Below, one piece after another: positions 1 through 18,094 of a stretch of 18,268 nucleotides of DNA (within the stretch, counting starts at the first letter, position 1; the number at the start of each line of letters is the position of its first letter). Source of the DNA: a virus; UHGV virus genome UHGV-0201843. One strand, given 5' to 3'. Under the pieces are notes generated by a model, which worked only from the letters and a program-made list of their open reading frames with translations, did not search any database and had not been told where the DNA came from. The translations under genes were made by a program, and so were the position numbers.

Positions 1-191
1 CTATGGTTGTAAATTCTATGATCGTTTTTGGTGAAGAATAATTTTTCTTATACTTCACCCCACCCCCTCCCAAAAACGAGACTATAATTTGAGCGCATTG
101 CGAGACAAATTTCGATTGAAAGGTCGATGTACTTTCAAAAAATATTCAATCCATTCTTCACCAAAAACGATCATAGAATTTACAACCATAG
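1..191. repeat. Left terminal fold-back element: perfect 39-bp inverted repeat (1-39 vs 153-191) around a 113-bp spacer that carries the ITR core
   Basis: Direct reading: reverse complement of 1-39 (ctatggttgtaaattctatgatcgtttttggtgaagaat) equals 153-191 exactly. Pairing breaks at 40/152. The outer arm starts at window position 1. Confidence 0.85.
41..105. repeat. Inverted terminal repeat core, left copy (65 bp, perfect match to reverse complement of 18164-18228). Contains C-rich box ccccaccccctccc
   Basis: atttttcttatacttcaccccaccccctcccaaaaacgagactataatttgagcgcattgcgaga is present at 41-105. Its exact reverse complement lies near the right end. Similarity continues imperfectly to about 125. 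Confidence 0.9.
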
Positions 192-228
192 CGACGAAAA
201 TTTTTTTCAAAAAATATCATCAAAACTA

Positions 229-257
229 TTGCAAAAAATTCACACCTATTATATAAT
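229..257 (+). promoter_or_regulatory. Sigma-A-type early promoter (TTGCAA - 17 bp - TATAAT) upstream of first early gene
   Basis: TTGCAA at 229-234, 17-nt spacer, TATAAT at 252-257. About 30 nt upstream of the GGAGG RBS of the 289 CDS. Confidence 0.5.
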
Positions 258-288
258 GGAATCAAGTTAGAAATGGAGGTGAAAAAAA

Positions 289-561
289 GTGACAGATGAA
301 AAAGGTCAAGCCTATACGGAAATGTTGCAACTATTTAATTTACTTCAACAATGGAATGATTTCTACACTGCAGAAAATGCAAATAATTTATTAGTTGCTT
401 GTCAACAATTATTGATTAATTACAATGAACCAGTCATTAAATTTATCAACGATGAAAATGAAGATAAGTCCCTACTTCAATATTTAGCTGGTGATGATGG
501 TTTAGCACAATGGCAATTTTACAAAGGTTTTTATAACAACTACAATGTACACATTTTCTAA
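289..561 (+). CDS. Early protein, 90 aa, unknown function (GTG start)
   Basis: ORF with GGAGG RBS (275-279) 9 nt upstream of GTG at 289. First gene after the left-end promoter. No recognisable motifs. Confidence 0.6.
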   Translation: MTDEKGQAYTEMLQLFNLLQQWNDFYTAENANNLLVACQQLLINYNEPVIKFINDENEDKSLLQYLAGDDGLAQWQFYKGFYNNYNVHIF

Positions 562-614
562 TGAACTGAGTTAATACTATATTCTACTAAAATATAATAA
601 ACGGAGGTGTGTTG

Positions 615-830
615 ATGAATTATATTGATGTTGAAATTAAGGGTTTTACAATTTACTCAAAAAATGATAGACATGAAGAGTATGACTTTTTTATTCCTAA
701 ACAAGATTATAGAATTACTAAACGTGAAATATTACAACATATTCCAGAAGGTCATACGCTACTCGACAGTAAACGAACATCAAAAATGATTACAGTTTCA
801 TATGATGAATTATTAAAAATTGAAATATAA
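615..830 (+). CDS. Early protein, about 71 aa, unknown function
   Basis: GGAGGTG at 603-609 followed by ATG at 615. The track ORF 609-830 begins with GTG/TTG codons inside the RBS. ATG 615 is preferred. Confidence 0.55.
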   Translation: MNYIDVEIKGFTIYSKNDRHEEYDFFIPKQDYRITKREILQHIPEGHTLLDSKRTSKMITVSYDELLKIEI

Positions 831-844
831 AGGAGATTAAAACA

Positions 845-1354
845 ATGGCAAATGTAAAAGATTTATTAAACAAATATTCAAACGGTGGTGCAAAATTCGA
901 GTATGACAATGAAAAAGAAAGAGATTACATCAAACTAGGTGAATTGGATTCATCAAAAACATACCCTATTGAAGCACTATTTATTAATACCAAAGGTAAA
1001 TTTGGTGATCAAGGTGTTATTATTAGTGGTGATTATATTGTAAATCTACCTAATCACTTAACAGAAATGATTGAAGATATGAGAAAAGATGAAGAAATGG
1101 TTGATGCAATCAATCAACGTTTATTTGATTTTGAAATTTATGAATTTGAATCTAAAAAATATAATCGTAAATCACATAGTATTAATTTAGTACCTAGTGA
1201 AAAAACAAAACAAGAGGTTGAACCTGAACCTGAGCAACGTAATCCGTTATATCGTGAACCTGAATCTGAAAAAAAAGTAGAAAATGATCGACGTAACCCG
1301 TTCGCTCACGCTAATGGTGCAATTGATATTAGTGATGAAGATATACCATTTTAA
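845..1354 (+). CDS. SSB-like early protein (169 aa) with acidic/Pro-rich disordered tail ending in the SSB-type C-terminal tip DISDEDIPF
   Basis: AGGAG at 831-835, 9-nt spacer, ATG at 845. The C-terminal hexapeptide DEDIPF matches the bacterial SSB C-terminal protein-interaction motif (consensus DDDIPF). It is preceded by a low-complexity E/P-rich linker. The N-terminal approximately 115 aa is not recognisably a canonical OB fold by eye. Confidence 0.6.
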   Translation: MANVKDLLNKYSNGGAKFEYDNEKERDYIKLGELDSSKTYPIEALFINTKGKFGDQGVIISGDYIVNLPNHLTEMIEDMRKDEEMVDAINQRLFDFEIYEFESKKYNRKSHSINLVPSEKTKQEVEPEPEQRNPLYREPESEKKVENDRRNPFAHANGAIDISDEDIPF

Positions 1355-1367
1355 ATAAAAATTAAAT

Positions 1368-1392
1368 AAAGGGGGCAATGCCTCCTTTTTTA
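1368..1392 (+). terminator. Rho-independent terminator or attenuator after SSB-like gene
   Basis: aaagggggc / gcctccttt stem (9 bp with one G-U, 3-nt loop) followed by TTTTT at 1386-1390. Sits 14 nt after the stop of the 845-1354 CDS. Confidence 0.55.
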
Positions 1393-1408
1393 TTATGGAG
1401 TGATAAAT

Positions 1409-1654
1409 ATGTTTGGTACTATTGTGACAATTGGATTATGTTTATATGGTATAATTGCATTATTAGTGGTTTCAATTGTAAATTATAAAAGGAATGATTA
1501 TATGAACTTAATTCAAGCATATTATAAAATCGTTAATGCACTCAATGATTATGATTTAACAGATGAACAAAAAGAAAAACTTGAACAAGCACTATTTGAA
1601 ATCACTTGTGTATTAAACGATTTAGAAAGCGAGGGAAAATATTTTGATTATTAA
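1409..1654 (+). CDS. Small N-terminally membrane-anchored early protein (about 81 aa)
   Basis: GGAG at 1397-1400 then ATG at 1409 (MFGTIVTIGLCLYGIIALLVVSIV...). The track start 1400 is a GTG inside the RBS. One predicted TM helix then an acidic helical tail. Confidence 0.6.
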   Translation: MFGTIVTIGLCLYGIIALLVVSIVNYKRNDYMNLIQAYYKIVNALNDYDLTDEQKEKLEQALFEITCVLNDLESEGKYFDY

Positions 1655-2873
1655 ACATCAAATAAAACTACATTTAAACGAATTGATTGATTGGGTGTGG
1701 AGACATAATATCAAGAATGAAAAATATTACTCAAATAATGGTTCATATGTGATATTTGATCATGGTGCAGTCGTTGAAACGTATATTATTAATAAAAATG
1801 ATTTATTTAATGTGACTGATGAAACAGAAATCACACTTGATACACCAATTCAACATTTTTTAGAAAAGGATATGTATGGTAATTATCGTGAACATTTTGA
1901 TATATCAATTCATCAATTATTGTTTTTAAATACAACAACTGATTTATGGTTAATTAATAACGATGATTCACACATTTTAATATATAAAGACGGAAAACTC
2001 ATTGATGAATATATGTATCATGAATTTGAATATGAAGCCAATCAGAATAAGCATATTTACCAAAATAATAAAGCAAGTGGTACATACCCACATCAAAGCG
2101 AACAAAACGTAAAAAAACCGAACAATCACCCTACCCCAAAACCTGAAACACCTGAAGATCACACACCAAAAGTTAGAACAGTTAAGACATTAAACGGTAC
2201 AGTAATGAAAGATTATACACCCGTTTCATCAATACAATATGTTAAATCTGTTGGAATCATTGGTGACAGTGTGGGTAAAGGCGCGCATGCTTCATATAAC
2301 TTTGGTGATTATATTAATGAAAAAAGTGGTGCAAAAATAAAAAACTTATCAGTCAGTAGTGCCACAATGAGTGATGTGAAAGATAATAATATCATTAATC
2401 AAGCGAAACAATTAAAAGATAATGAACTCGTGATTATACAGGGTACTGATGATGATTGGTTGTTTAATTCTAATACAGGTGTTGAAGTAGGAAATAAACT
2501 TACAGATACGAAAACATATATCGGTGCATTTTATAAGGTTATCGAAACGGTTAAAGAAAATAACCCAAAAGCTAAAATCATAGTGATTACACCTACAAAA
2601 CAAGCAAAAGTTGACGATACTGGAAAAGTAATCAGACGTGATACAGATAAAAATAAAAAAGGTTACACGTTGAAAACCTATGTTGACGCACAAGTAAAAG
2701 CAACTAAAGATTTAGGATTAGCTTTATATAATGCGTATGATGATTCATTGATTAATCCATATGAAGCAAAATTCAGACAATCGTCAATGAAAGATGGATT
2801 ACACCCAACAAAATGGGGACATGAAGTAATGTACTACCGTATAGCAGAAACATATCATAAAAAATTTGATTGA
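1644..2873 (+). CDS. Fusion protein (409 aa): N-terminal domain of unknown function, Pro/Thr-rich linker, C-terminal SGNH/GDSL-family hydrolase (esterase) domain
   Basis: TTG start at 1644, preceded by GAGGG (1631-1635) with an 8-nt spacer, overlapping the upstream stop. SGNH blocks: GDS in VGIIGDSVGKG (block I); GTDDD (block III variant of GxND); DGLHPT (block V DxxH catalytic dyad). Linker PNNHPTPKPETPEDHTPK. Confidence 0.7.
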   Translation: MIIKHQIKLHLNELIDWVWRHNIKNEKYYSNNGSYVIFDHGAVVETYIINKNDLFNVTDETEITLDTPIQHFLEKDMYGNYREHFDISIHQLLFLNTTTDLWLINNDDSHILIYKDGKLIDEYMYHEFEYEANQNKHIYQNNKASGTYPHQSEQNVKKPNNHPTPKPETPEDHTPKVRTVKTLNGTVMKDYTPVSSIQYVKSVGIIGDSVGKGAHASYNFGDYINEKSGAKIKNLSVSSATMSDVKDNNIINQAKQLKDNELVIIQGTDDDWLFNSNTGVEVGNKLTDTKTYIGAFYKVIETVKENNPKAKIIVITPTKQAKVDDTGKVIRRDTDKNKKGYTLKTYVDAQVKATKDLGLALYNAYDDSLINPYEAKFRQSSMKDGLHPTKWGHEVMYYRIAETYHKKFD

Positions 2874-2883
2874 GGTGTAGTAA

Positions 2884-3387
2884 ATGAGAAGTGGTAATAA
2901 AGGTAATCGCATTGCACGTTCAAATGCGTTTAGAAATGCAACAAGCAAAAATCAATCAACGTATGAACGTGACGGTTTTGTTTTTTTATTTGATGATGAA
3001 GAATTACAAAAAGAATATATACATGAATATAACAAATTTAATAATTTATTTGTGGAAAAAGGAAAGGTTAAATTACCTAAACCGAAAAAGATAAGTTATA
3101 TTGATGCTAAAAGTTTAGTCAGTGGAAAGAATCAAGAAAAGTTAACAGAAATAGAAAATGTTTATAAACAATTGGACTATGACTGGGAAGAAAAAGGGAA
3201 TATGCACAAACGCCACCTATTCCAAGAAGCAGTCAAAGAAAATGACGGCTCACAAGAAATATCACACTTTATTAAATCAACTGAAAAGTTATTTGAGGAA
3301 CTCGCAGAAGCAACGAACGTACCAGATATTGTCAATAAAAAACAAGTGAAATATAACGTGGTTTATTACGTCAGACGGGTAGGTTAA
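2884..3387 (+). CDS. Basic 167-aa protein of unknown function (candidate DNA-binding or terminal-protein-like)
   Basis: GAGGTG at 2872-2877, ATG at 2884. Lys/Arg-rich N-terminus (MRSGNKGNRIARSNAFRNATSKN). Sits immediately upstream of the packaging ATPase and polymerase genes. Confidence 0.6.
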   Translation: MRSGNKGNRIARSNAFRNATSKNQSTYERDGFVFLFDDEELQKEYIHEYNKFNNLFVEKGKVKLPKPKKISYIDAKSLVSGKNQEKLTEIENVYKQLDYDWEEKGNMHKRHLFQEAVKENDGSQEISHFIKSTEKLFEELAEATNVPDIVNKKQVKYNVVYYVRRVG

Positions 3388-3445
3388 AATATGTTTGAAA
3401 ACATTCAAGATATTATTGATTATTATTCAAGTAAGGAGGGACAAC

Positions 3446-4705
3446 ATGAAAAAGTCACGACTGAATGAGGTCAAAGATTATCAAAATTTTGTAACTAAGT
3501 TTAGACGATCTATTCCAAAGCAATATAACCAAATTGAACTTGTTGATGATTTAATGAATTTAGATATAGATTTTCTTATTTCTATATCAAACCGTTCAGA
3601 TGGTAAAACATTCAACTATGTTGCTTTTTTTATGAAGTTAGCCATTGATTTAGACATCAAATTCACACTACTAGCAAGACACCATACGTTACGTGACGCA
3701 TACAGAGAATTGTTAGAACGTATTTGTATCGAACAAAAACATTTTAACGATAATGATCTATTCTTTAGAAACACACAAGACTATATAGCTGTTGGATATG
3801 GTGATAAAGAAATAGGGATTATTACACATCTCAATAACGCAACAGATTTAAAATATCATTCCAACTTCATGAAAAACTTTCCTATTATCATCTATGATGA
3901 ATTTTTAGCATTGGAAAGTGACTATTTGATAGATGAGTGGGAAAAGTTAAAAACGATTTATGAATCTATTGATAGAAATCATGGCAATATTGATTATATT
4001 AAAATTCCTAAAATCGTATTATTAGGTAATGCTGTGAACTTTTCAAGTCCACTACTTGCAAACTTAAATATTTATGAACAATTACAACATCATTCTAAGT
4101 TTGCGATGAATAGTAAACGTCAATACGGAAATATCATGTTAGAAATGAGGCGTAATGAATTTTCTAATGAGAATCGTAATACACGTGCATTTAATACGGA
4201 TCATGATTCAATGACAACGGGTGAATTTGATTTCAATACATTTAATTTAGCTGATGATCATTTACGTGCACATATATCGAGTAATGGAAACTTTTTCTAT
4301 ATTAAAACCCCTTACAATTATATTAAAGTAATGTATCACTTGAATGACTATCAAACGAATATTAAAGTCGTGCCTTATGCAGACAATTATCAGTTTTGTA
4401 CTGATGTTTCAGATGTTGAAAAAAACGCAATATATTTAAAAGATACATTTTATAAGGAAAATCATTCTAAACGTTATTATAACCCCTCAAATCTTCATTT
4501 TGACAATGCTTATAGTAAGTCTTTTATATTGAATCAAGATGATTTTATTTATCTAAACATGAACAAAATTATTAAGTATCATTTAAAAACTGAACGTAAT
4601 AAAAACGGTTACAAACCTTTTGAACAAAAAGAAAAAATGTATTATGATAATTACATTGAACGTACCAAAAAAAATCTAGTCAAATCATTTATAAGCAATG
4701 TGTAA
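3446..4705 (+). CDS. DNA encapsidation (packaging) ATPase, phi29 gp16-like
   Basis: Strong RBS GGAGGG (3435-3440) before ATG at 3446. The upstream ATG at 3395 lacks a good RBS. Walker A-like SNRSDGKT and Walker B-like hydrophobic run + DE (IIIYDEF). Position upstream of the polymerase as in 44AHJD-like phages. Confidence 0.7.
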   Translation: MKKSRLNEVKDYQNFVTKFRRSIPKQYNQIELVDDLMNLDIDFLISISNRSDGKTFNYVAFFMKLAIDLDIKFTLLARHHTLRDAYRELLERICIEQKHFNDNDLFFRNTQDYIAVGYGDKEIGIITHLNNATDLKYHSNFMKNFPIIIYDEFLALESDYLIDEWEKLKTIYESIDRNHGNIDYIKIPKIVLLGNAVNFSSPLLANLNIYEQLQHHSKFAMNSKRQYGNIMLEMRRNEFSNENRNTRAFNTDHDSMTTGEFDFNTFNLADDHLRAHISSNGNFFYIKTPYNYIKVMYHLNDYQTNIKVVPYADNYQFCTDVSDVEKNAIYLKDTFYKENHSKRYYNPSNLHFDNAYSKSFILNQDDFIYLNMNKIIKYHLKTERNKNGYKPFEQKEKMYYDNYIERTKKNLVKSFISNV

Positions 4706-4709
4706 AGTT

Positions 4710-4738
4710 TTTACATATTGCTTTTTATGTGTTATAAT
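4710..4738 (+). promoter_or_regulatory. Strong sigma-A promoter with extended -10 (TTTACA - 17 bp - TGTTATAAT) for the DNA polymerase gene
   Basis: TTTACA at 4710-4715, 17-nt spacer ending TGT, TATAAT at 4733-4738. The polymerase RBS GAGGTG and ATG at 4763 follow. Confidence 0.55.
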
Positions 4739-4762
4739 GAATTTTGATTAGAGGTGTAGAAC

Positions 4763-7057
4763 ATGGGATTATTAGAAGCAATGCAAAAAAATAAAGGTCA
4801 AAAACATATGTACCTTTATTGGGATATAGAAACATTAAATTATAATAAAATTGCTGGTAGAGAAAAACCTACAAAATATAAAAACGTGACATACAGTGTT
4901 GCAATTGGTTGGTATGATGGACAACATATTGATGTTGAAGTTTTTTCTAGTTTTAAAGCCTTTTATCAATCTTTTTTCGAATATGCACAAAGACGAGATA
5001 CAATAACAAAATCACAAACTACAATCAATATGATCGCACATAATTGTAATAAATATGATAATCACTTTCTACTACACGATACACAAAATTTCTTTGGTGA
5101 TGATTTAATTATTGAAAATTTATATATGAAAAGTGCTGATGATAATTCAAATACAGTTAATATCAATGAAGCAAAATTATTATCTAAAGAAACCAATGTG
5201 ATTTTAGAAAAACGTGTGAAATCAAGTATTAATTTAGATTTAATGATGTATTTAAAAGGTTTTAAGTTTAATATTATAGACAATTTTATGAAAACCAATA
5301 CATCAATCGCAACACTCGGTAAAAAGCTCAAAGACGGTGGGTTTATCAGTGAAGATGAGTTAAAAACTGATTTTGAATATGATGTGTTTGATGTTGAACA
5401 TGATATGACAGATAAACAAGCTTATGATTATGCTTATGAATGTTTTCATCAACTTACAGCATCACAAATGACCTATATTAGAAACGATGTCATCATATTA
5501 GGTATGTGTCATATCCATTATAGTGATATATTTCCCGGATTTGATTATAGTGCGATGACCTTTAGTGTAAATATTATGAAAAGCTATATTAATAATGAAA
5601 CAACACGATTGCAATTACTCAATAAAAAAGGTAAACAAAAAATATCATATACGGACTTTACATTTTTTGATATGAATTTTTATGACTTTATCAAAGGTTT
5701 CTATCGTGGTGGTTTAAATATGTATAATTCACGATACGTTGACAAAATCATTGATGAGGAATGTTTTTCAATAGACATAAATAGTAGTTATCCCTATGTG
5801 ATGTATCATGAAAAATTACCGATGTATATTTATGATTTTGATGAATATGAACAACCGACAACGATACACATTGATTTAACCAATAAAGATTATTTTTCAC
5901 TTTATAAAATGGATAAGGTCACATTTAATCGTACTATTTTAAGAAATATTGAAAGTGATTTAATTAAGCAATGTCTTGTTAAATACTACAATAATGACAA
6001 AAAGTTTGTTAATATAAATACAAACACTTTACGCATGATTGAAGATTTAACGGGTTTAACTTTTGACAAAATAAAAGTGTTTGCTTTTGTGTGTTATGAA
6101 TGTGAATACTTTGGCGCTCGTGATATTATTCATCATAATTATTTCATCAAAACGCAAGGTAAATTAGATAAAAAAATCATTATGGATTCACCCTATAATT
6201 ACACGATCACTGATGAAGTCAATACACATACTTATTCAAAAGAAGAAATCATGTTAAGTAAAGTTGTTTTAAATGGTCTGTATGGTATACCTGCTTTACG
6301 GTCACATTTTAATTTGTTTAGACGTGATGAGGACGGTTTTTTAGTTAACCATGAAAATGGATATAAAAACAGTGAACGTAATTTATTATTTTCTACTTTT
6401 GTGACATCACAAGCCCTTTATAATTTACTTGAACCATTAAAGTCATTAACACAATCTGAAATAGATGACTGCTTTATATATTGTGATACTGACAGTTTAT
6501 ATTTAAAATCAAAAATTAAACATAAAATAAATGATGAATTATTTGACCCTATTGCATTAGGTAAGTGGGATATAGAAAATCATGTCATTAAAAAAATGTA
6601 TGTACTCAATCATAAAAAGTACGCCTACCAAAAAGAAGATAACACAATTAAAATTGCCAGTGCAGGTATTCCATTAGACGCATTTAATAAGAATCAATCT
6701 TTTGAAAATTTTATTAAAAATGATTTTCACCATAAAGCAATTGTGTATAACAATAAATCCATTTATAACGAACAAAAAACAATATCTATTTACCCGTCAA
6801 AAACATATATTGAAAAGGGTACGCCTTATGATTATTATTTCACTAAAGAATTAGAGGATAGAAAAGAAGATGTTTTAAAACAAGCAAGACAAGAATATGA
6901 TGATGTGAATGATGATGATATATTATATATAGAGAGTGAAGTAGGCGCTTTTTCATTTAGTGACTTATTTCCATATCAATTTGAAATTAAAAATAAATGT
7001 GATCTTAACATATTATATATGGTTCATCAAGATATAAAAAATGACGCTACATCATAG
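4763..7057 (+). CDS. Protein-primed family-B DNA polymerase (phi29-type), 764 aa
   Basis: Exo I (LYWDIETL), Exo II (HNCNKYDNHFL), Exo III (YIRND), motif A (DINSSYP), motif B (KVVLNGLYG), motif C (YCDTDS), KxY (KKY). GAGGTG RBS. Confidence 0.95.
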   Translation: MGLLEAMQKNKGQKHMYLYWDIETLNYNKIAGREKPTKYKNVTYSVAIGWYDGQHIDVEVFSSFKAFYQSFFEYAQRRDTITKSQTTINMIAHNCNKYDNHFLLHDTQNFFGDDLIIENLYMKSADDNSNTVNINEAKLLSKETNVILEKRVKSSINLDLMMYLKGFKFNIIDNFMKTNTSIATLGKKLKDGGFISEDELKTDFEYDVFDVEHDMTDKQAYDYAYECFHQLTASQMTYIRNDVIILGMCHIHYSDIFPGFDYSAMTFSVNIMKSYINNETTRLQLLNKKGKQKISYTDFTFFDMNFYDFIKGFYRGGLNMYNSRYVDKIIDEECFSIDINSSYPYVMYHEKLPMYIYDFDEYEQPTTIHIDLTNKDYFSLYKMDKVTFNRTILRNIESDLIKQCLVKYYNNDKKFVNINTNTLRMIEDLTGLTFDKIKVFAFVCYECEYFGARDIIHHNYFIKTQGKLDKKIIMDSPYNYTITDEVNTHTYSKEEIMLSKVVLNGLYGIPALRSHFNLFRRDEDGFLVNHENGYKNSERNLLFSTFVTSQALYNLLEPLKSLTQSEIDDCFIYCDTDSLYLKSKIKHKINDELFDPIALGKWDIENHVIKKMYVLNHKKYAYQKEDNTIKIASAGIPLDAFNKNQSFENFIKNDFHHKAIVYNNKSIYNEQKTISIYPSKTYIEKGTPYDYYFTKELEDRKEDVLKQARQEYDDVNDDDILYIESEVGAFSFSDLFPYQFEIKNKCDLNILYMVHQDIKNDATS

Positions 7058-7070
7058 TAGCGTCTTTTTT
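7043..7070. terminator. Bidirectional rho-independent terminator between the convergent early (+) and late (-) operons, overlapping the polymerase stop codon
   Basis: Perfect 8-bp stem gacgctac / gtagcgtc with loop atcata (contains the polymerase TAG). Followed by TTTTTT (7065-7070) on the plus strand and preceded by an A-run (tataaaaaat, 7033-7042) that gives a U-run for the minus-strand transcript. Confidence 0.65.
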
Positions 7071-7163
7071 CGAGGTATAGTGACATGTTTCGCCTGTCTA
7101 CGGATTATGTTTTGTTGTTTATTTACTAGAATGTTCTAGCATACTTATATTATAGCATAAAAT

Positions 7164-8582
7164 TTATTTAATACCACTAAAGAACATAATATTATCTCCT
7201 GCATTTTCCGGTACACCATCAATCAGTGCATATTCAACAACACGACTAGGCGCCCAATAAGGTGGTACGTTATAGTTAGCTGTTAAAAATGAACCATCTT
7301 TAAATACTGCTACAACAACACCTGTATGTCCGACACCCGGTAACATCGCTTGTAGGTAATTAGGTTTACTACTGAATCCATAGCCAACTGTTGGTCGGTG
7401 TGTCACACGTGCGCCTTGATTACGATATACCACCCAAACACGTTGACCGTTTGTGACTTGATTATCCCATGCAGGTTGTCTTTTACCCCATATTTGGTGC
7501 ATATAAGCCCATGTCAATTCTGTACATTGTCCAGTATCACCTGTATTAACAAATGGACTACCTGCTAAATATTTTGGATCAAATTTAGGTACTTCAATGG
7601 CATCTTTATACTTTTGTGGTAAATTGGAATAAGTCCAGTTACCACCTATTTTTCTTCCACTTTTTCCATTAGGCGCAACGGATTTACCAGCTTTTCCACC
7701 ATGATCACCATCACTATCATCAGCACCCGTATCATTTCCACTACCTCCATCAATTCTTGATATTAAGTCTTTCATTTCATCAAGTAATTTTTGATTCATA
7801 TTTAAACGATACGTGTTATTATATGTTTTGGTGATAGTGAACATTTGATTTGAAAAAAATTTATCAGTACCAATAGAGTGCAAATCCCACTGCATACTGT
7901 CTTGTAATTTTTTGAGAAATTCTTCAAAGGCACGTGCCACAACATCAAGCCCACCACTAGGACTACTAGAACTACTTGAACCACTACTTGATCCTCCTTT
8001 ACCGTCTATTTTACCACCCCAACCCAAAATGGTATTTGCTGCGTCTAAAAATGGATTACCGTAAGTTTGAACTCTATTATAACTTGCTTGTAATCCCTCA
8101 GGATAATAAGCAGCCCAAGTTGCAGCAGCTGTTAATGGTATATAAGCACGTCCTACTTTTCCATTTTTCATATTATGTGAAAAGTCATAATTTCCTTTCG
8201 CTTTTACACTAGCAGGAACAAAGTCAACTGGATTTCCTTGGTCTATCCAACTTGGCGTACCTGCTTGACGTGATTGTGAAACAAGTTTACGTGCCACAAA
8301 TTGTGCATCGGTTAAATAATTTCCCTGTGGTGATGTATGATTTAACCAACCCCAACTACCATTATATCCCTCATTTTTTTCATATGCTGCAAAAAGAGCA
8401 GGTGAAACTCCAATGCTTTTAACTGCATTAAGGACTTGCTTAATTTTAGTTGAACTATTTCCACACCATGCAGAAAATCGACCTATACCCTTAACTTTTC
8501 CGACTAAATCATCAACACTTAATCCAAAATCATCATTTAAATTGGAATGTATAAACTTATCAATTTTTTCTTTATCATTCAT
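7164..8582 (-). CDS. Virion-associated (tail-tip) peptidoglycan hydrolase, about 472 aa: N-terminal putative glycosidase-like domain, Gly/Ser-rich linkers, C-terminal CHAP domain
   Basis: ATG at 8582 preceded by GAGGGTG. The track start 8606 is an upstream GTG. CHAP signature Cys in DTGQCTELTWAY and His in GVGHTGVVVAV. Linkers GGKIDGKGGSSSGSSSSSSPSGG and GGSGNDTGADDSDGDHGG. Last gene of the late operon, as for the phi29 gp13-type tail lysin. Confidence 0.7.
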   Translation of the reverse strand: MNDKEKIDKFIHSNLNDDFGLSVDDLVGKVKGIGRFSAWCGNSSTKIKQVLNAVKSIGVSPALFAAYEKNEGYNGSWGWLNHTSPQGNYLTDAQFVARKLVSQSRQAGTPSWIDQGNPVDFVPASVKAKGNYDFSHNMKNGKVGRAYIPLTAAATWAAYYPEGLQASYNRVQTYGNPFLDAANTILGWGGKIDGKGGSSSGSSSSSSPSGGLDVVARAFEEFLKKLQDSMQWDLHSIGTDKFFSNQMFTITKTYNNTYRLNMNQKLLDEMKDLISRIDGGSGNDTGADDSDGDHGGKAGKSVAPNGKSGRKIGGNWTYSNLPQKYKDAIEVPKFDPKYLAGSPFVNTGDTGQCTELTWAYMHQIWGKRQPAWDNQVTNGQRVWVVYRNQGARVTHRPTVGYGFSSKPNYLQAMLPGVGHTGVVVAVFKDGSFLTANYNVPPYWAPSRVVEYALIDGVPENAGDNIMFFSGIK

Positions 8583-8985
8583 CTTTTCCACCCTCTTTTT
8601 TTCCACGTATCACTTTTAATTTTTCACCTATTTCATCTGGAATAAGAACCCCCATTTCTGCACAGTTTTCAATAATAGATAATCCCTCATTAGCAATATA
8701 GAAAAAGATTGTTACCATTAATAATCCATTATTTAAGTTTAAAATTTGATCGATAATATTTGCTAAAATAATAATACAGAAAACAAGTATTTTACGACCG
8801 AATCCATACATTGATTTTCTACTCCATAAATTTTTATTTTTAAAACCTTTTGCTAAACCTGTAATAATATCAACACACATTAATATCATTAAAAAATAGA
8901 GTAATTTTAAATCACCTGCATAGATAAATGTATGAAAAATATCTGTTTGTGTGTATTGTACATTGATTTCACCTTTTTGTTCCAT
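8575..8985 (-). CDS. Holin (3-TM, phage_holin_4_1/LL-H-like), 136 aa
   Basis: Three hydrophobic segments (LLYFLMILMCVDIITGL, ILVFCIIILANIIDQIL, LLMVTIFFYIANEGLSII) and a charged C-terminal tail KKEGGKDE. Stop overlaps the start of the downstream hydrolase gene. Confidence 0.7.
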   Translation of the reverse strand: MEQKGEINVQYTQTDIFHTFIYAGDLKLLYFLMILMCVDIITGLAKGFKNKNLWSRKSMYGFGRKILVFCIIILANIIDQILNLNNGLLMVTIFFYIANEGLSIIENCAEMGVLIPDEIGEKLKVIRGKKEGGKDE

Positions 8986-8993
8986 TAAATATC

Positions 8994-10760
8994 CTACTTT
9001 CTAAATTTATTTTTAAATACATTTTGTGCCATTGGATTATTTGAACCATCATTGTGCCAAAATCTTACACCCGTTTCAAGTAATACTTTTAACTGTTCTA
9101 AAAGCATTGGATCAATACCATCAATGGTATATGTACCTCTCATTCTTAAATAATTGCATACCGTCCATGAATCAATTGGAAACGGTGTGCCTGCTTGATC
9201 GTTGGTTTCAAAACCTAACATAAAATAATAACGTTGGATATTATCCATATCAAATGGTGCGGGTACACCAATTTTCATAGTTAATCCATTAATACTATTT
9301 GCGATTTGGAAAGCATTTCCCATTTCTGAACTTGTTACTGTTGGTGGTTGTAATGCTAAATCCTTATATTCTGCTCGTAATTCTTTATAGTAATTATATT
9401 CATCATTAAATTTTGAAAATAATGCCGTTGGTGAAAGATTTGATCCAATGCTTACAGCATCATAAAATCTTGATTTTAAATCATTACCATTGACAACATT
9501 ATTGATTCTATTTGAAATTAAATTACTTTGTGCATTTTTTTGTTTATTAGCTTGTTGTGATTGAGCAAGTAATCCATTATCAATCAAAATAGGTACTTCA
9601 GCAAAGCTATCAAATGTAATAGCTGTATTTAAGAATGAACCTGTATCTATTAATATTGAATTATCACTTGCTTTGATTGGTTTTTCATTAGGTGCACTGT
9701 TATAATCTACTGGATAAATACGTACCTCGTTATGATATCCAATAATAGATTTTGTTTTTAATTTAACACCTGTTCTTTCTGTTATTTTTCCTGCATCAAG
9801 TAGTAAACTGTCACCATTCCATGAATATATTTCAATCGTTAAATATTCATTTCTAACTAAATGTTTTAATTCATCTTGATTACTATTTAACATATATTGC
9901 AATCGTTCAAATGGTACACGTAATTCTTTTAATTCCCACTCATTAGATAATTTATCATTTTTAAGTGTCATTAATCCTTTTATATCTTCTTGTGTTTTGA
10001 CTGCTTCTAAATCATCTTTATTAATAAATGTTGCAGGTATTAATATGATTTTTTGAAAGTTTTGTGTAATCCATGGATATTTACTCATTTTATCCATAAA
10101 GTTATTAAAATCCTCACGATTCATGACATATAAATTAACTGGACTTGTAATGTAATCGTAAGTAATTCCTTTTGAAGATTCTAAGTTTGGTTCTTTTTTA
10201 GTACCAAATTTTTTAGATAAATCAGCACTTGATTGGAATAAAACAAGATTACCACCAAACTGTTCAAGATAATTATTCAGATAGTATTTGTTACTGGCTT
10301 TAATAACATCATCATTATTTCTCAGTGATGGTAACAAATAATTATAGACCTCACGTGGTAAATGTTGACGTTCAACAAAAGCATTTTGAACAGTAGATAA
10401 TACATTGCCCTGTGTGTAAGTCATGACTGTATCAATGACTAAATACATACGCGTCACATGATCATTGACATATTCAATTTGATTGACAAACGCGTAATAA
10501 CGTCTATTTTCAAAATCAGATTTAAATGTACAATAATTGATACCCTGTGCGTCTTGCCATGACATTTGTTCAAGATTCACCATATTTCTATCACGTATAA
10601 AATTAAATGGTATATTTTTGTAATCAATCGCATAAAAGTGATTTTCATTTAAAAAATAATGATCACGTGCAGCATTTGATGGAAAGTGAATTGTATTCTG
10701 ATAATCTGTCATTGGTGTATTATAGAAAAATTTAAAATGTGTTAATTTTCTATCTGCCAT
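8994..10760 (-). CDS. Tail knob (distal tail tube) protein, phi29 gp9-like, 588 aa
   Basis: AGGAGG RBS 7 nt upstream of ATG at 10760. Size and position match the gp9 tail knob of phi29-like phages. Assignment is by synteny and size, not by motif. Confidence 0.55.
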   Translation of the reverse strand: MADRKLTHFKFFYNTPMTDYQNTIHFPSNAARDHYFLNENHFYAIDYKNIPFNFIRDRNMVNLEQMSWQDAQGINYCTFKSDFENRRYYAFVNQIEYVNDHVTRMYLVIDTVMTYTQGNVLSTVQNAFVERQHLPREVYNYLLPSLRNNDDVIKASNKYYLNNYLEQFGGNLVLFQSSADLSKKFGTKKEPNLESSKGITYDYITSPVNLYVMNREDFNNFMDKMSKYPWITQNFQKIILIPATFINKDDLEAVKTQEDIKGLMTLKNDKLSNEWELKELRVPFERLQYMLNSNQDELKHLVRNEYLTIEIYSWNGDSLLLDAGKITERTGVKLKTKSIIGYHNEVRIYPVDYNSAPNEKPIKASDNSILIDTGSFLNTAITFDSFAEVPILIDNGLLAQSQQANKQKNAQSNLISNRINNVVNGNDLKSRFYDAVSIGSNLSPTALFSKFNDEYNYYKELRAEYKDLALQPPTVTSSEMGNAFQIANSINGLTMKIGVPAPFDMDNIQRYYFMLGFETNDQAGTPFPIDSWTVCNYLRMRGTYTIDGIDPMLLEQLKVLLETGVRFWHNDGSNNPMAQNVFKNKFRK

Positions 10761-10778
10761 TTCTTATCCTCCTTATAT

Positions 10779-10810
10779 GTAAAAAATAGACACGCTTTCA
10801 CGTGTCTATT
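10779..10810 (-). terminator. Rho-independent terminator on the minus strand between the coiled-coil fibre gene and the tail knob gene
   Basis: Perfect 10-bp stem aatagacacg / cgtgtctatt (10785-10794 / 10801-10810), 6-nt loop. On the minus strand it is followed by TTTTTT (plus 10779-10784 aaaaaa). Confidence 0.55.
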
Positions 10811-10820
10811 ATATCATAAT

Positions 10821-11618
10821 TTAGTCTATAAATACTGTATTAATTGGACACCATTCATCGCCCGTTGGTGAATCATTTGTTGTACCCTCTAAGACAATAT
10901 CTCCCTCACGTTTAATTGTGATTCTCATAAAGTTGATTGACCCACTTTTTTTAGATGTATTTTGTACATAATAATGTGGATTTGACAACTCACCACTGAT
11001 AGGAATTTTACCAACTGTGTTATTGTCACCTTTATATCCATTGACTGCACCACGTAAAGCAATAGTTCTAATTCCTTTTACAGTTGTTATTCTATATTGT
11101 GGTGGATCAGTATGTGGTGTTAATCCACTACCAGTGATGTTAATATTTTTCCAACCTGTATCTGTAATATTAATTTCATTGATTTTATTCGTATTCGATT
11201 GAATTTTTTCATTTGTTTCGTTTGTTGTTTCGTCAATCTTTTCTGATAACGTTTTTTGTTCTTGTTTCAATTCATCGATATTAATTGAATCAATTTTTTG
11301 TTCATTATCATAGATACGTTTTTCATTATCTGATAGTTTTTCTTGAACTTCTTGTACTTCATCTGGTAAAAATTCAACCTTTTTTATTTTTTCTTCATTA
11401 TTATAAATACGTTGTTCGTTATCTGATAATTTTTCTTGAACTTCTTGAACTTCATCTTGTAATGGTTCGATACTTTCTAAATGAAGAAAACCATTTTTTG
11501 TGTAAATGTAAACATCACCATCAACGGTTGAACATATATCATTTTCGTCAAGAAGATTTGTATTAAAATTTTGTAGGTTATAAATATCTTTGACACTTCT
11601 TACAAATTTACTTGCCAT
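10821..11618 (-). CDS. Coiled-coil fibre-like structural protein (about 265 aa) with internal 31-aa tandem repeat and C-terminal beta-rich knob domain
   Basis: GGAGG RBS then ATG at 11618 (MASKFVRS...), overlapping the amidase stop by 11 nt. The track ORF extends to 11684 inside the amidase gene. Heptad-like repeats LxDEVQEVQEKLSDNExRIYxNExKI occur twice. The C-terminus is Gly/Thr/Asn-rich and beta-like. Confidence 0.6.
   Translation of the reverse strand: MASKFVRSVKDIYNLQNFNTNLLDENDICSTVDGDVYIYTKNGFLHLESIEPLQDEVQEVQEKLSDNEQRIYNNEEKIKKVEFLPDEVQEVQEKLSDNEKRIYDNEQKIDSINIDELKQEQKTLSEKIDETTNETNEKIQSNTNKINEINITDTGWKNINITGSGLTPHTDPPQYRITTVKGIRTIALRGAVNGYKGDNNTVGKIPISGELSNPHYYVQNTSKKSGSINFMRITIKREGDIVLEGTTNDSPTGDEWCPINTVFID
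11292..11462. repeat. Imperfect 93-nt tandem duplication inside the coiled-coil fibre gene
   Basis: Two DNA copies (about 11292-11369 and 11385-11462) encode LPDEVQEVQEKLSDNEKRIYDNEQKI and LQDEVQEVQEKLSDNEQRIYNNEEKI. Same reading frame, period 31 aa. Confidence 0.8.
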
Positions 11619-12507
11619 GCTTTTCAACCTCCAATTTTCCCCAAAGATTTTTTTCATTTTTAATTTTTTCTTGTTTATCTTCAATATGACCTATTGGCAT
11701 ATAGAAATATTTATCGCTTGAACCTTTTTTAGCGTATTTAAACTTAATCCACCATAATTTTGCTTGTTTATCTTTTATGATTTGATAAAACGGTACATAT
11801 TCATTAGGTTGTATATATGAATCTTTATCAACCTCTTTTGCAGTCATACCATAATCATATCTAGGAACAATCGGTAATGTATTTGTTTTATGAGCAGTAA
11901 ATGTACCACGCCAATTATATTTAACGTATTTATTTTCACTCACTTGTGGTTTATCAGGTGTTTTTCCACCGTTTGCATAATGTTTAATACGAGAGATAAA
12001 GTAATCAATCAATTTTAATTGGTTTGCTCTTGTATTTGGTGCATTAACCCCTATGTGTATATCCCAACTACGATGAGGACAAGACGTTGAAAAGTATTCA
12101 CGATGTAGGTGAACCGTATTACGATTAATTGGTAAATTGTATGATTTCATCACATCGGCAACAACTTTAAAAGTAGCTTCTTCATTTTTCATAAATGTTT
12201 CATCAGATATATGATTTGGATAACTTTCACAGACTTCAAAACCAATTAAATGTTGGTTTGCGTATTGATTTCCACAATGCCACTCAACAAAATTTGTAGG
12301 GTGATACCATAAAACCTCATTACGATTGATATAAACTGAAGCCCAACCCTGTGTATACGTACCATTTTGTTCACGTGTATATAACCAGTTTAAATATTGG
12401 CTAGGTGTCATTGAACCGTAATCATTATGAATGACTACGCCATCAATACTAGGTTTTTGACCTGTCAACTTTTGACCTTTAATGTGATTTGAATAAATGT
12501 TTTTCAT
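11608..12507 (-). CDS. Endolysin: N-acetylmuramoyl-L-alanine amidase (Amidase_2/PGRP type) with C-terminal SH3-like cell-wall-binding domain, 299 aa
   Basis: AGGAGG RBS 7 nt before ATG at 12507. Zinc-amidase motifs: His in GVVIHNDYG, and H...E...CP in HLHREYFSTSCPHRS. C-terminal approximately 90 aa is Trp/Tyr/Lys-rich and SH3b-like. Confidence 0.75.
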   Translation of the reverse strand: MKNIYSNHIKGQKLTGQKPSIDGVVIHNDYGSMTPSQYLNWLYTREQNGTYTQGWASVYINRNEVLWYHPTNFVEWHCGNQYANQHLIGFEVCESYPNHISDETFMKNEEATFKVVADVMKSYNLPINRNTVHLHREYFSTSCPHRSWDIHIGVNAPNTRANQLKLIDYFISRIKHYANGGKTPDKPQVSENKYVKYNWRGTFTAHKTNTLPIVPRYDYGMTAKEVDKDSYIQPNEYVPFYQIIKDKQAKLWWIKFKYAKKGSSDKYFYMPIGHIEDKQEKIKNEKNLWGKLEVEKHGK

Positions 12508-12543
12508 TATAATACCTCCTTAAAATTTAAGGATAGGCAAAGC

Positions 12544-14373
12544 CTACCCTAGAATAATCAACCCTTTACTTGATAATGTTTGAGGGTCAACATTGGTAGA
12601 ATATCCATGGTCTTTATCTGTAAATATCCTACTACCATTATACACGTTATAAACTGTTTTGTTACTAGATATGTTAGAACCAAAACAAGTAATTTCACCA
12701 CCACGTGTTGCATAAACGGGTTCATTTTTAGTACCTGAAATATTTGACGCTTCGGCGAACACTTTAGACGCATAAGCTAAAATACCAAAATCACCACTAC
12801 CTTTAATTGTGATTCTATCTGCAAATATTTGACCACCACGTGTGGCTTCAATACCGTTACGACCTGCACGTTCAATCACTGCTTCATTAATAGAAATCAC
12901 TGAACCATATGCCAATACGTTATCATCTTTTGAACGTGATACTTTCGCACCATATGCAGCGACATATCCACCACGTGTGGCTTCTAATCCACGACGACCA
13001 TTTCCATCACAATTAATCAATTGACAATACACATCACCTGCATAAGCAAGTACGCCATTACGTTTATTTCCATTCGTTGTTGATAATCTTGCTTGAACTG
13101 TTGAACCATGTGTACATTGGATTCCGTCAAGTCCGTTTTCATTTGCATTACCACTTGTGAAATCCACTTTTGAATTGTTACTTGCTATGACACCATGCCA
13201 TTTATTACGTGAAGCTGTAGCTTTAGTAGCATCAATTGAACAACCTCTATTTGCCATAATACCACTTGCACCACAACCATTAGCAATCCCTTGATCAAAG
13301 TTAATATTTGATGAACGGGTAGCAATGACACCGTATGTTGTTTGTGAATTTGAGCAATCAGAATATCTTAAATCAATATCACTTGAGGCGTAACTAACAA
13401 CGTTATCATCAATAGTATCAGTGATTTTACAGTTTCTAGCACTGGCTTGTGAACCTGTGGTTACCATTAAACCATGATGACCGTTGAAACGTGCTTCAGT
13501 ATAATCTATATAACCACTTGCACCATGTGAGAAATGAATACCAATCTCACCACAACGATTGACTGTCATGTAATTGGCTGTGAGTGATGAGTTAAATATT
13601 CTTATTCCATCACCATACATATTTTGTTGATTGTTAAATTCTTCTAATTGTTCACGATTACCATTGTAGGAAAAATCACAATAGTTGGCCCCTATATGTG
13701 AACCATTGACACCACATAAACCAATAAAATTAAAGTGTGTTGACCCACCACGTTCAGTCATTTCAAACGTTGTATTATCCATTAAGAAACCACAGTTAAT
13801 ACTATCTGAAAAATCTTTGTTTTGAAGTTTAAAATCAATTTTAGGGAATGTTGAATTAATTCCATAAAATAATGGTTTTACTCTAAAAATTGGATTTGTT
13901 TTTATTTCAACTTGACGATTTAATTCAGTTTCATAGGCTTCTACAATATCATTTTCTGATGTAATCGTAATATGATTATAACGTTTATCACGTAAGAATA
14001 ATTGTTCGCCCATCTTGTAATCTTTAAGTAAAATCACACGTATAGATTTTGGTTGTACAATTAAATCTTCAATATGTTCAAAACAATGATTCAATGTATC
14101 AAAGTCACCTTTTTGTCCGACTGTATAAGTCACATCAGTATTTGATAATGTTAAAGCGTCGTATGTTTCTTTCATTTTTTGTATATCATCTGCTAAACCA
14201 TTGACAAAATCACATAATTCAAAAATAAAACCATTGAAACGTGCTAAGTAATCATAATATGATTTTGAATTGGTATTGTAATCTGCATTGTCTGTATAAA
14301 ATGGTAATCGTGACACACCACGTCTATATCCGTATTCATTATTGTAGTTGATTCGACCGTTATTAATATACAT
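12544..14373 (-). CDS. Tail fibre / appendage (receptor-binding) protein with beta-helix (pectate-lyase-like) repeats, 609 aa
   Basis: GGAGG RBS 7 nt before ATG at 14373. Gly/Asn/Ser-rich beta-solenoid-like repeats (NGSHIGANYCDFSYNGN, GIHFSHGASGYIDY, NGHHGLMVTTGSQ). Position between lower collar and lysis genes as for the phi29 gp12 or P68 fibre. Confidence 0.6.
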   Translation of the reverse strand: MYINNGRINYNNEYGYRRGVSRLPFYTDNADYNTNSKSYYDYLARFNGFIFELCDFVNGLADDIQKMKETYDALTLSNTDVTYTVGQKGDFDTLNHCFEHIEDLIVQPKSIRVILLKDYKMGEQLFLRDKRYNHITITSENDIVEAYETELNRQVEIKTNPIFRVKPLFYGINSTFPKIDFKLQNKDFSDSINCGFLMDNTTFEMTERGGSTHFNFIGLCGVNGSHIGANYCDFSYNGNREQLEEFNNQQNMYGDGIRIFNSSLTANYMTVNRCGEIGIHFSHGASGYIDYTEARFNGHHGLMVTTGSQASARNCKITDTIDDNVVSYASSDIDLRYSDCSNSQTTYGVIATRSSNINFDQGIANGCGASGIMANRGCSIDATKATASRNKWHGVIASNNSKVDFTSGNANENGLDGIQCTHGSTVQARLSTTNGNKRNGVLAYAGDVYCQLINCDGNGRRGLEATRGGYVAAYGAKVSRSKDDNVLAYGSVISINEAVIERAGRNGIEATRGGQIFADRITIKGSGDFGILAYASKVFAEASNISGTKNEPVYATRGGEITCFGSNISSNKTVYNVYNGSRIFTDKDHGYSTNVDPQTLSSKGLIILG

Positions 14374-14384
14374 TGTTTATCCTC

Positions 14385-15236
14385 CTACCATATGTGTAAA
14401 AAACATTCTTTATCATATGTTTTAAATATTGTATCACGCATGGAATATAATTTTTGTAAGTTATCAATTAAGTATTGTTTTGTTAAACCTGTACGATTCA
14501 TTTCATTTTGTGACTCAGTATTACGTTTCGTATCACTTTCACCGTTTCTTAATGAATCAAACGTATTATCTTTTGTACCTGTTTTTTCTGATACTGTTTC
14601 ACTGGTATTTTTATCTCGTGAAATCGTGTTTGTGTCTGCATAATCAAGCACTGTATTATCTACATCAATATTCACTTGTGATTGTGGTAAAGTAGATTCA
14701 GCAGTACGGTTATCATCAAAACTTTTTGTAATTGTATCTTCATAATCTTTATATTCTTCATGACCTTTGTCTTGTTGTCTATCTTTCGTTTGACCTTGTT
14801 CAATGGCATTTTCTAATGCTTTGCCAATATCCGTTGACTGTGTGTCAGTCATTTGTTCAATATATTTATACATATCTGAACCATAGACACGATATATATA
14901 TTCTTCATGTGTCATGGTGATGTATAATACTTGACTTGCAAAGGATTCTACTGTTTGACGACCTATTTCACGATATAAAAAACGCAATGTGAAACTTTCT
15001 TTAAAATATCGGTCAATCCGTTCATCATTAAACATGAAACCTTTAAAAAACATATTATCAACAATTTGTTTGACATCATCATCAAAATACAACATCTTTT
15101 GCATAAACGCATGTTTTGAATCGTTAAAGTGGATTCTATCATTATTAACAAATTCATTTAACCCTAAACGTTGTAATTCACTTTCAATGATTTCATATAA
15201 CGTTGTTGTGTGTTTACTCAACTTTTCCACCACCAA
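14385..15236 (-). CDS. Lower collar protein (putative), about 280 aa. Start codon uncertain: TTG/GTG cluster at 15236-15219
   Basis: Size and synteny (downstream of portal). No ATG and no clear SD. Start overlaps the portal C-terminus (GGTGGTGGAAAAGTTG), which suggests translational coupling. Polar low-complexity C-terminal region. Confidence 0.5.
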   Translation of the reverse strand: MVVEKLSKHTTTLYEIIESELQRLGLNEFVNNDRIHFNDSKHAFMQKMLYFDDDVKQIVDNMFFKGFMFNDERIDRYFKESFTLRFLYREIGRQTVESFASQVLYITMTHEEYIYRVYGSDMYKYIEQMTDTQSTDIGKALENAIEQGQTKDRQQDKGHEEYKDYEDTITKSFDDNRTAESTLPQSQVNIDVDNTVLDYADTNTISRDKNTSETVSEKTGTKDNTFDSLRNGESDTKRNTESQNEMNRTGLTKQYLIDNLQKLYSMRDTIFKTYDKECFLHIW

Positions 15237-16221: not shown

Positions 16222-16239
16222 GGTTTAAAAGCCTCCTTA

Positions 16240-17460: not shown

Positions 17461-17473
17461 TGTTTAACTCCTC

Positions 17474-17665
17474 CTATACTTCTTGTGTACCTTCATCACT
17501 ATATGATTGTTTTGTTAATGAATGAACTTGTCGTCCGTATTCATCTTCTGATTTTGATGTAGCAATACTCATATTTTCATTTAATTCTCTTGATTTATTT
17601 AAACGTGAATCTTCATAATTGGCATGTGTCATGCCACGCATTTCATTTCCATCAAATACTGACAT
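17474..17665 (-). CDS. Small polar protein (about 63 aa) between scaffold-like and capsid genes, unknown function
   Basis: AGGAGTG RBS then ATG at 17665 (MSVFDGNEM...). The track start 17674 is a GTG within the RBS. Confidence 0.5.
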   Translation of the reverse strand: MSVFDGNEMRGMTHANYEDSRLNKSRELNENMSIATSKSEDEYGRQVHSLTKQSYSDEGTQEV

Positions 17666-17677
17666 ATTTTTCACTCC

Positions 17678-18001
17678 TTATAAATTTAACATTTCTTTAA
17701 TTTCTTCACTTGATTCAATACCATCTGTTTCTTGATCGTCATCAACTTCAGTAGGTGATGTTTTATCTTCAAAATTTGGATCACTTGATGTTTCATTAGT
17801 TGATTGTGCTTCTTGATTATTCAATCGTTGCTCTAATGCAGTCACACGTTGTTCTAATTGAACAAAAGCCTCTGATTTTTCTTCTGTTGTTTCTTTTTCT
17901 GGTTCAGTGACAACATCTTCTGCACTTTCAATTTTTTCTGGTGATTCTTCTGTTGATTCTGTTTCAGGTTCTTCTTTGATAATTTTTTCTTCTTCTGCCA
18001 T
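17678..18001 (-). CDS. Acidic coiled-coil head protein (scaffolding or inner-core candidate), 107 aa
   Basis: GAGGTG RBS 9 nt before ATG at 18001. Very acidic (E/D/S/T-rich) with central heptad-like LEQRVTALEQRLNNQE. First gene of the late operon, as for phi29 gene 7. Confidence 0.55.
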   Translation of the reverse strand: MAEEEKIIKEEPETESTEESPEKIESAEDVVTEPEKETTEEKSEAFVQLEQRVTALEQRLNNQEAQSTNETSSDPNFEDKTSPTEVDDDQETDGIESSEEIKEMLNL

Positions 18002-18058
18002 TTTATTTACACCTCTTTATTTTATAAAAATAATTAAGCAAATAATTTGCTTGTTTCA

Positions 18059-18087: not shown

Positions 18088-18094
18088 AATTTGT

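Follow-up and report, generated by a model that had tools for sequence, protein, structure and literature searches.

Phages of the genus Andhravirus (family Rountreeviridae) are small phi29-like podophages of the Staphylococcus epidermidis Andhra-like type, and they are thought to replicate from a terminal protein. For Andhra, gp7 has been proposed as the 5' terminal protein on the basis of cryo-EM and an AlphaFold comparison with phi29 gp3 (PMC9710869). Sliding-back initiation, the start of replication in such systems, needs a terminal reiteration, which is 3'-TTT in phi29, GA-1, Nf and Cp-1 (PMC4974454). Inverted chimeras of sequenced DNA form a second body of relevant knowledge: their overlaps are mostly 5-8 nt long with hotspots at 12-13 nt, and their preferred distances are ~80 and ~280 nt (PMC9984789). 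In a related library-preparation artefact, partial single strands anneal through short inverted repeats of natural origin, an exonuclease trims the 3' tails, and the remaining gap is filled in (PMC10908179).

We analyzed the UHGV virus genome UHGV-0201843, whose whole stretch of 18,268 nt is referred to here as the window. It is an Andhravirus. Its full length can be aligned with Staphylococcus phage Andhra, at 91% identity, and also with Pontiff, JBug18, Pike, St 134, BESEP3, PSU3 and the S-CoN_Ph series. Two of its genes bear on replication:

4763-7057, plus strand: family-B DNA polymerase related to the protein-primed (phi29-like) type, 764 aa (phi29 polymerase in the PDB, 1XHX, E=2.6e-7; PHROG 1907, E=3e-170)
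2884-3387, plus strand: putative terminal protein ORF, 167 aa, by synteny and equal length with Andhra gp7 (Andhra_07) and with the ORF of St 134 that carries the annotation '5' terminal protein'

The polymerase scores E=5e-4 against Pfam PF03175, which is below the family cutoff. Neither the putative terminal protein ORF nor the encapsidation ATPase matches Pfam, and in PHROGs the former falls only into PHROG 6099, an unnamed family with no assigned function. With a phi29-like polymerase and a gp7 counterpart, the genome is thus expected to be linear and monomeric, its 5' ends linked to protein and its inverted terminal repeat (ITR) reaching to the last base.

In Pontiff, Pike and PSU3, both ends start 5'-AAATATTAAG(G/A)A...TTTTTTTGGTACTTCACCCC (in a fuller stretch, ...TTTTTTTGGTACTTCACCCCACCCCC). 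The JBug18 record begins with poly-T junk, followed by AAATATTAAG, and S-CoN_Ph31 has a complete end that is followed by an unrelated inverted segment. At both ends of the Andhra record, ...ACGGCATACGAGAT-CACTGT-GTGACTGGAGTTCAGACGTGTGCTCTTCCGATCT, which we take to be an Illumina TruSeq index adapter, directly adjoins AAATATTAAGG. Two IMG/VR contigs from one metagenome sample likewise carry, at one end each, an adapter remnant ...GTGCTCTTCCGATCT fused to AAATATTAAGG:

UViG 3300045988_138792 and _136760, last ~25 bases: adapter-bearing ends of Andhra-like IMG/VR contigs, matched by a degenerate ITR pattern

As the adapter is ligated directly to the AAATATT terminus, it marks the physical 3' end of the molecule. 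Judged from these deposited sequences, the terminus of the genus is established as 5'-AAATATTAAG, which opens with an AAA reiteration.

Two of these records deserve separate mention. In the Andhra reference record (KY442063), adapter occupies positions 1-55 and 18492-18546, so that 42 nt of the published and annotated 155-nt ITR (14-168) are adapter. The true perfect ITR of Andhra is 113 nt long, as annotated for Pike and JBug18, and its genome measures ~18,436 rather than 18,546 nt. The JBug18 record (MH972263) has long poly-T runs at 1-~94 and ~18458-18547, outside the annotated ITRs, which are non-genomic junk.

At the left edge of the window, bases 1-39 are the exact reverse complement of bases 153-191 (39 nt, 100% complementary, arms 113 nt apart). 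The pairing of the arms ends there because A at base 40 faces C at base 152. The spacer carries the ITR, of which 65 nt (41-105) are exactly reverse-complementary to 18164-18228; in its extended form, 41-124 against 18145-18228, the repeat covers 84 nt with 95% identity and 4 mismatches. An exact inverted repeat of 39 nt is expected ~2e-13 times by chance at the composition of the window. The longest exact inverted repeat in the window interior has 18 nt, and the longest ones in 100 first-order Markov random sequences averaged 16.4 nt, with a maximum of 24. An earlier, sequence-only reading had described the exact arms with their mismatch at 40/152, the 113-nt spacer with its 65-bp ITR core, and a vanishingly small probability of chance origin, and our repeat search, base inspection and random sequences confirm all of these. 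The left edge is composed as follows:

1-39, plus strand: left outer arm, copied in exact reverse complement from 153-191 and judged to be a snap-back extension, not genomic sequence
33-40, plus strand: left junction zone, AAGAATAA, which resembles the sub-terminal AAGGAA(A/T)A of relatives (alignment A1)
41-124, plus strand: left ITR copy as retained, exact over 41-105, homologous to the ITRs of all relatives, with the terminal ~14 nt absent
153-191, plus strand: left inner arm, the template of the outer arm; genuine genomic sequence with a homologue at the same place in S-CoN_Ph32 and weaker ones in Andhra and Pontiff

Base 40 (A) is a member of neither arm. Bases 33-39 of the left arm may also be read as genuine sub-terminal sequence, and from the likeness of 33-40 to AAGGAA(A/T)A the true left junction could lie anywhere in 33-40. 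Microhomology demonstrable at this junction amounts to 0 nt, and would amount to 6 nt (AAGAAT) only if the unseen terminus reads AAGAAT. The fold-back is symmetric about ~96 and encloses a non-palindromic loop of 113 nt.

The right edge has a fold-back of its own, in which 18095-18149 pairs with 18214-18268 (55 nt, 96% identity, 64-nt spacer), flush with the last base; the exact part comprises 50 nt, 18095-18144 against 18219-18268. It had gone unmentioned in the earlier note. Its parts are:

18095-18149, plus strand: right inner arm, the template of the right outer arm; genuine genomic sequence, clearly homologous to sequence in Pontiff, Pike and Andhra (alignment A2)
18135-18144, plus strand: internal microhomology partner, ATTTTTCTTA, the site of right snap-back priming
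18145-18228, plus strand: right ITR copy as retained; its last 10 nt, 18219-18228, are TAAGAAAAAT, the primer side of the microhomology
18229-18268, plus strand: right outer arm past the microhomology, copied in reverse complement from 18095-18134; judged not to be genomic sequence, and without counterpart in relatives

TAAGAAAAAT at 18219-18228 is the reverse complement of ATTTTTCTTA at 18135-18144. This 10-mer occurs three times in the window (in the two ITR copies and at 18135-18144), with 0.43 occurrences expected by chance, and the pairing of the 3' end is exact over 10 nt and extends to 13 of 15 positions when the flanks are counted. Pairing over these 10 nt, loss of the unpaired tail and extension along 18134, 18133 and onward would yield exactly the observed 18229-18268. 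The axis of symmetry lies at ~18181, with a loop of 64 nt. The two outer arms are unrelated to each other, each duplicating unique sequence just inside its own ITR copy, and the two fold-backs have neither sequence nor arm length nor loop length in common.

A short natural inverted repeat is present at 18135-18149 / 18214-18228, between a T-rich sub-terminal ITR word, which recurs at 41-50, and the internal AAGAAAAAT. In the window, where the ITR has a C in place of the T of the relatives, it pairs perfectly over 10 nt; in the relatives themselves it is imperfect. This natural repeat may merely be the seed of the artefact.

How the window ends relate to the terminus of the genus is evident from the alignments of the left (A1) and right (A2) ends, in which homology of the window starts at ~33-41 and stops at 18228. 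No counterpart of 1-~33 or of 18229-18268 was found among the relatives in these alignments, and no homologue of the left outer arm at the ends of Andhra, Pontiff, Pike, BESEP3, PSU3, Ph28 and one IMG/VR contig. Since the inner arms have clear homologues and the outer arms have none, the inner arms are the originals and the outer arms the copies. The word TACTTCACC lies 24 nt from the end in the relatives; in the window it lies at 51 and is preceded by only 10 nt of shared ITR (41-50). This offset, 24 against 10 nt, indicates that ~14 genuine terminal bases are absent at each end of the window, with the fold-backs in their place.

The assembled ends read 5'-CTATGGTTGT and 5'-ATCGTTTCTT (CTATGG and ATCGTT). 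They are not identical at their extremes, as identity between the ends is confined to 41-124 and 18145-18228; no nucleotide is reiterated at bases 1-3 or in the last 3, where relatives start with AAA; and the outer 39-40 nt at each end match none of the close relatives. Being neither identical nor reiterated, CTATGG and ATCGTT would be unusable as protein-primed origins as presently understood (PMC4974454). The polymerase and terminal protein that characterize a protein-primed genome are encoded by the genome as a whole and lend no such character to the outer arm. The common stopping place of the ITR at the two ends calls for no particular cause, because the recognizable ITR extends only as far as the junction that lies further in. 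Taken from sequence comparison, the real genome is probably ~18.2 kb long (41-18228 plus ~14 nt per end), with 5'-AAATATTAAG... at both ends, and an artefactual origin of the fold-backs would predict true 3' ends of ...CCAAAAAAATT(T)CCTTAATATTT-3' or similar.

Immediately inward of the ITR, the two ends of the window are mosaic (125-200 against 18095-18144), the left being S-CoN_Ph32-like (GTCGATGTACTTTC...) and the right Andhra/Pontiff-like (GTTAAGAAAAATACATTC...). The ITR of the window therefore spans only ~84 nt (plus the missing tip), compared with 112-143 nt in relatives.

We consider it very likely that both contig ends are snap-back (copy-back) chimeras that have replaced the true terminus. 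The fold-back is most likely a curation problem, neither a replication origin nor a real biological element. According to this explanation, the free 3' end of the strand ending at each terminus would fray from the very A+T-rich end, fold back over 65-115 nt and pair with a short complementary word on its own strand. The unpaired terminal ~14 nt would be removed by a proofreading exonuclease, and a polymerase would extend the end inward, creating a strand that consists of the reverse complement of internal sequence, the junction, the ITR and the internal sequence. Reads of such molecules, which are perhaps rare (low read support is assumed), could carry the assembler past the true end, where the contig overruns because a physical end offers no competing extension path. 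The order of these events and their in vitro setting, that is, end repair/A-tailing or amplification, are what we infer.

Several observations directly support the snap-back explanation: the two fold-backs as such, their non-homology to each other and to the defined ends of relatives, the missing terminal bases and the microhomology on the right. The appended segments are exact reverse complements of nearby sequence (39 of 39 positions on the left, 50 of 50 on the right, with partners 113 and 64-74 nt away) and are not conserved in homologous genomes, as expected of chimeras. Both partners of both junctions lie within 200 nt and are inverted, which argues for intramolecular snap-back rather than random ligation. 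Furthermore, the arms are identical at 39/39 and 50/50 positions, compared with 4 mismatches per 84 nt in the genuine ITR, so the copies must be very recent. The 10-nt overlap and the junction distances also agree with the published properties of inverted chimeras (PMC9984789) and with the library-preparation model (PMC10908179). Several points count against a snap-back artefact: the left junction lacks demonstrable microhomology, and the window and S-CoN_Ph32, which are independent assemblies of the same lineage, both have a left fold-back that holds the ITR core in its loop. The arm lengths of 39 and 50-55 nt, which fit no single assembler k-mer size and so do not account for where the assembler stopped, likewise count against it. 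An assembler k-mer setting as the cause of arm length was rejected, as the exact arms of 39 and 50 nt correspond to no one k.

Inverted duplications also occur in other Andhravirus records, and their quite different geometry, like the adapters of Andhra and the poly-T of JBug18, speaks for an artefact at the ends of the window. S-CoN_Ph32 (OR354855), the closest relative of the left end of the window (82.5%), has a terminal fold-back (4-617) at one end only, with an exact arm of 270 nt (10-279 as the reverse complement of 342-611), a 62-nt loop and a junction inside the C-rich ITR core, at a site different from that of the window. Ph36 (OR354859) has a 1446-nt arm, with 1-1446 being the reverse complement of 1628-3073. 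In Ph31 (OR354854), an 889-nt inverted copy of 3243-4131 is appended past the true end at 18309-19197, and Ph34 (OR354857), at 25,977 nt, is an inverted chimera with a ~7.4-kb inverted second copy that is 77% identical. In these four 'complete genome' records, many genes are fragmented. The S-CoN_Ph genomes were obtained from Nanopore ligation libraries by Flye assembly (PMC11001980), and with the Nanopore ligation protocol 0.18-7.33% of reads are inverted-repeat chimeras (PMC13141652). Neither end showed a local fold-back in Andhra, Pontiff, JBug18, Pike, St 134, BESEP3, PSU3, Ph28, Ph29, Ph30, Ph33 or Ph35. Viral, metagenome and genome contigs gave no match when scanned with exact patterns for the window-specific ITR and for the inner arm, and the degenerate ITR pattern found nothing in genome contigs and, in IMG/VR, only the two Andhra-like contigs listed above.

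The sequence-only reading had offered two interpretations of the left edge, a real origin or telomere and an inverted chimera from library preparation, amplification or assembly. Comparison with the ends of relatives supports the chimera, apart from the detail that the true end was placed near position 40: with ~14 terminal bases absent, the true end is not in the contig. A genuine packaged origin or telomere, whose end folds into a long hairpin, would account for a perfect repeat that greatly exceeds chance and borders directly on the end of the sequence, and for the comparable structure at the other end. We nevertheless regard it as highly improbable, because the outer arm has no counterpart in relatives with defined ends, the two ends are neither inverted repeats of each other nor reiterated at their tips, and the conserved AAATATT terminus, adapter-marked in Andhra and the two IMG/VR contigs, is absent. 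The dissimilarity of the arms between the ends in sequence, length and loop is also difficult to reconcile with a telomere, as is a symmetry axis (96) that lies off the physical end, unlike that of hairpin telomeres. Repair of a damaged end by copying the inner arm, as the same interpretation had suggested, cannot work, since the inner arm is internal and not terminal sequence, and copying it restores no end. A covalently closed hairpin telomere was discarded as well, its axis being required at the end and found here at ~96 (113-nt loop) and ~18181 (64-nt loop). A structured RNA at the ends, such as a packaging RNA, was also dismissed, there being no Rfam match at gathering thresholds anywhere in the window, phi29-type packaging RNA included. 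It is extremely improbable that the fold-backs arose purely in the assembly graph without a chimeric molecule, or by end-to-end or fragment-to-end ligation. The ITR does collapse to one de Bruijn graph node, and a left junction without demonstrable microhomology is what blunt ligation would give, but the junction words rc(153...)-40/41 and 18228-rc(18134...) must have been present in reads and the right junction has its 10-nt microhomology. End-to-end ligation of two genomes would yield a palindrome centered on the physical end and not an asymmetric 113-nt loop, and random ligation of fragments was rejected in view of the proximity and inversion of both partners and the 10-nt overlap on the right; inverted partners within 200 nt at both ends would be rare, ~(200/18268 x 1/2)^2 = ~3e-5 by our own estimate.

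Copy-back could also take place inside the cell, if a template switch close to the terminus, made by the strand-displacing, protein-primed phage polymerase or by a displaced strand at its 3' end, gave hairpin-ended by-products that were co-purified and sequenced. This appears unlikely to us, although the polymerase of the window is phi29-like, polymerases of the phi29 type give mostly inverted chimeras in vitro (PMC9984789), and template switching by phi29 polymerase in vivo is on record, as far as the citation of Murthy et al. 1998 in PMC4974454 goes. The independently sequenced S-CoN_Ph32, with its ITR core in the loop of a left fold-back, points in the same direction, and this shared left-end fold-back could hint at a biological tendency to snap back. 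However, the Ph32 junction lies elsewhere and the S-CoN_Ph genomes come from Nanopore ligation libraries, which are prone to inverted-repeat chimeric reads (PMC13141652). Moreover, seven Andhravirus records (Andhra, Pontiff, JBug18, Pike, St 134, BESEP3 and PSU3) have no local fold-back, with the sequencing platform known from a paper for Andhra only (Illumina), and sequence alone does not separate the in-cell process from an in vitro artefact. A stronger version, which we rate as slightly more doubtful still, holds that Andhravirus ends intrinsically snap back in the infected cell at short inverted repeats in or just beyond the ITR, and that the phage polymerase extends them, making hairpin-ended copy-back genomes a routine side product, or a controlled dead-end, of protein-primed replication. 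The strands that fold would be displaced ones, or nascent ones at the end of the template, and the products would have to be abundant enough to enter independent assemblies (both ends of the window and the left end of S-CoN_Ph32). Whether formed in vivo or in vitro, the outer arms are not a viable genome end.

For curation, the snap-back explanation means that annotation as genome, origin or ITR should be withheld from the first 39-40 and the last 40-50 bases of the contig; 1-39/40 and 18229-18268 should be trimmed and the termini marked incomplete. As the true ~14 terminal bases of each end, which contain the actual replication origin, are absent, statements on ITR length or origin that are drawn from this record would be wrong. 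The same check of the ends reveals problems in public reference records, such as the adapter-containing ITR of Andhra, and provides a usable rule, namely that the terminus of the genus is 5'-AAATATTAAG. Copy-back molecules formed in vivo, if real, would constitute a new class of by-product for protein-primed replication; nothing here requires them.

Some further features of the window were noticed. The ITR core recurs in diverged form, as a direct repeat, in the left inner region that includes the inner arm (50-112 against 142-203), with 41 of 63 positions matching at a spacing of 91-92 nt and a score above that of all 300 shuffles. By eye, the repeated CAGAAACGATACAA..AATTTG word is also seen at the corresponding places of S-CoN_Ph32; in Pontiff and at the right end of the window, nothing past a 9-nt word was found. 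The repeat could represent a protein-binding site present in two copies, or an ancient duplication. Ahead of the first ORF (289-561), positions 229-257 hold a strong sigma-70-like promoter (TTGCAA, 17 nt, TATAAT), whose sequence hardly varies among all the relatives aligned in A1. Two tandem 93-nt copies with 83% identity are located at 11293-11478, within ORF 10821-11684 on the minus strand, which corresponds to the head-fibre or 'minor tail' gene of Andhra.

Set against known systems, the window shares with the hairpin telomeres of poxviruses, phage N15 and Borrelia a terminal inverted repeat able to form a hairpin. In those telomeres the axis is at the physical end, whereas that of the window lies 96 nt inside and is surrounded by an asymmetric 113-nt loop. 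Prokaryotic hairpin telomeres (N15, Borrelia) require a telomere resolvase, and no window gene beyond the Andhra set is evident. The subgenomic molecules of phi29 reportedly keep the normal protein-linked origin on the outside, with the switch at internal sites; the window, in contrast, has the origin region in the loop and internal sequence outside. Common to both, to the extent that Murthy et al. 1998 is cited in PMC4974454, would be a strand-displacing, protein-primed polymerase that switches template and thereby gives rise to aberrant molecules.

The chimeras of Ph32, Ph36, Ph31 and Ph34 resemble the window in having inverted duplications at or near a contig end, and Ph32 additionally in holding the ITR core in its loop and in lacking the terminal bases. 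They differ in their far longer arms (270, 1446 and 889 nt and several kb), in their junctions and loops, in their restriction to one end and in their origin from Nanopore sequencing and Flye assembly. With the inverted chimeras of MDA and library preparation (PMC9984789, PMC10908179), the window shares an outer segment that is the exact reverse complement of nearby sequence from its own molecule, a junction distance of 64-113 nt, the 10-nt overlap on the right and the loss of an unpaired 3' tail before extension. Such chimeras are usually a minority of soft-clipped reads, whereas the fold-backs of the window are in the consensus at both ends of a linear, supposedly protein-capped genome, and the overlap on the left is not demonstrable. 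In comparison with the Andhravirus ITR and the phi29-type origin, finally, 41-124 and 18145-18228 are homologous and both a polymerase and a putative terminal protein are encoded, but a genuine ITR starts with AAA and reaches to the last base, while the window carries foreign sequence outside its ITR.
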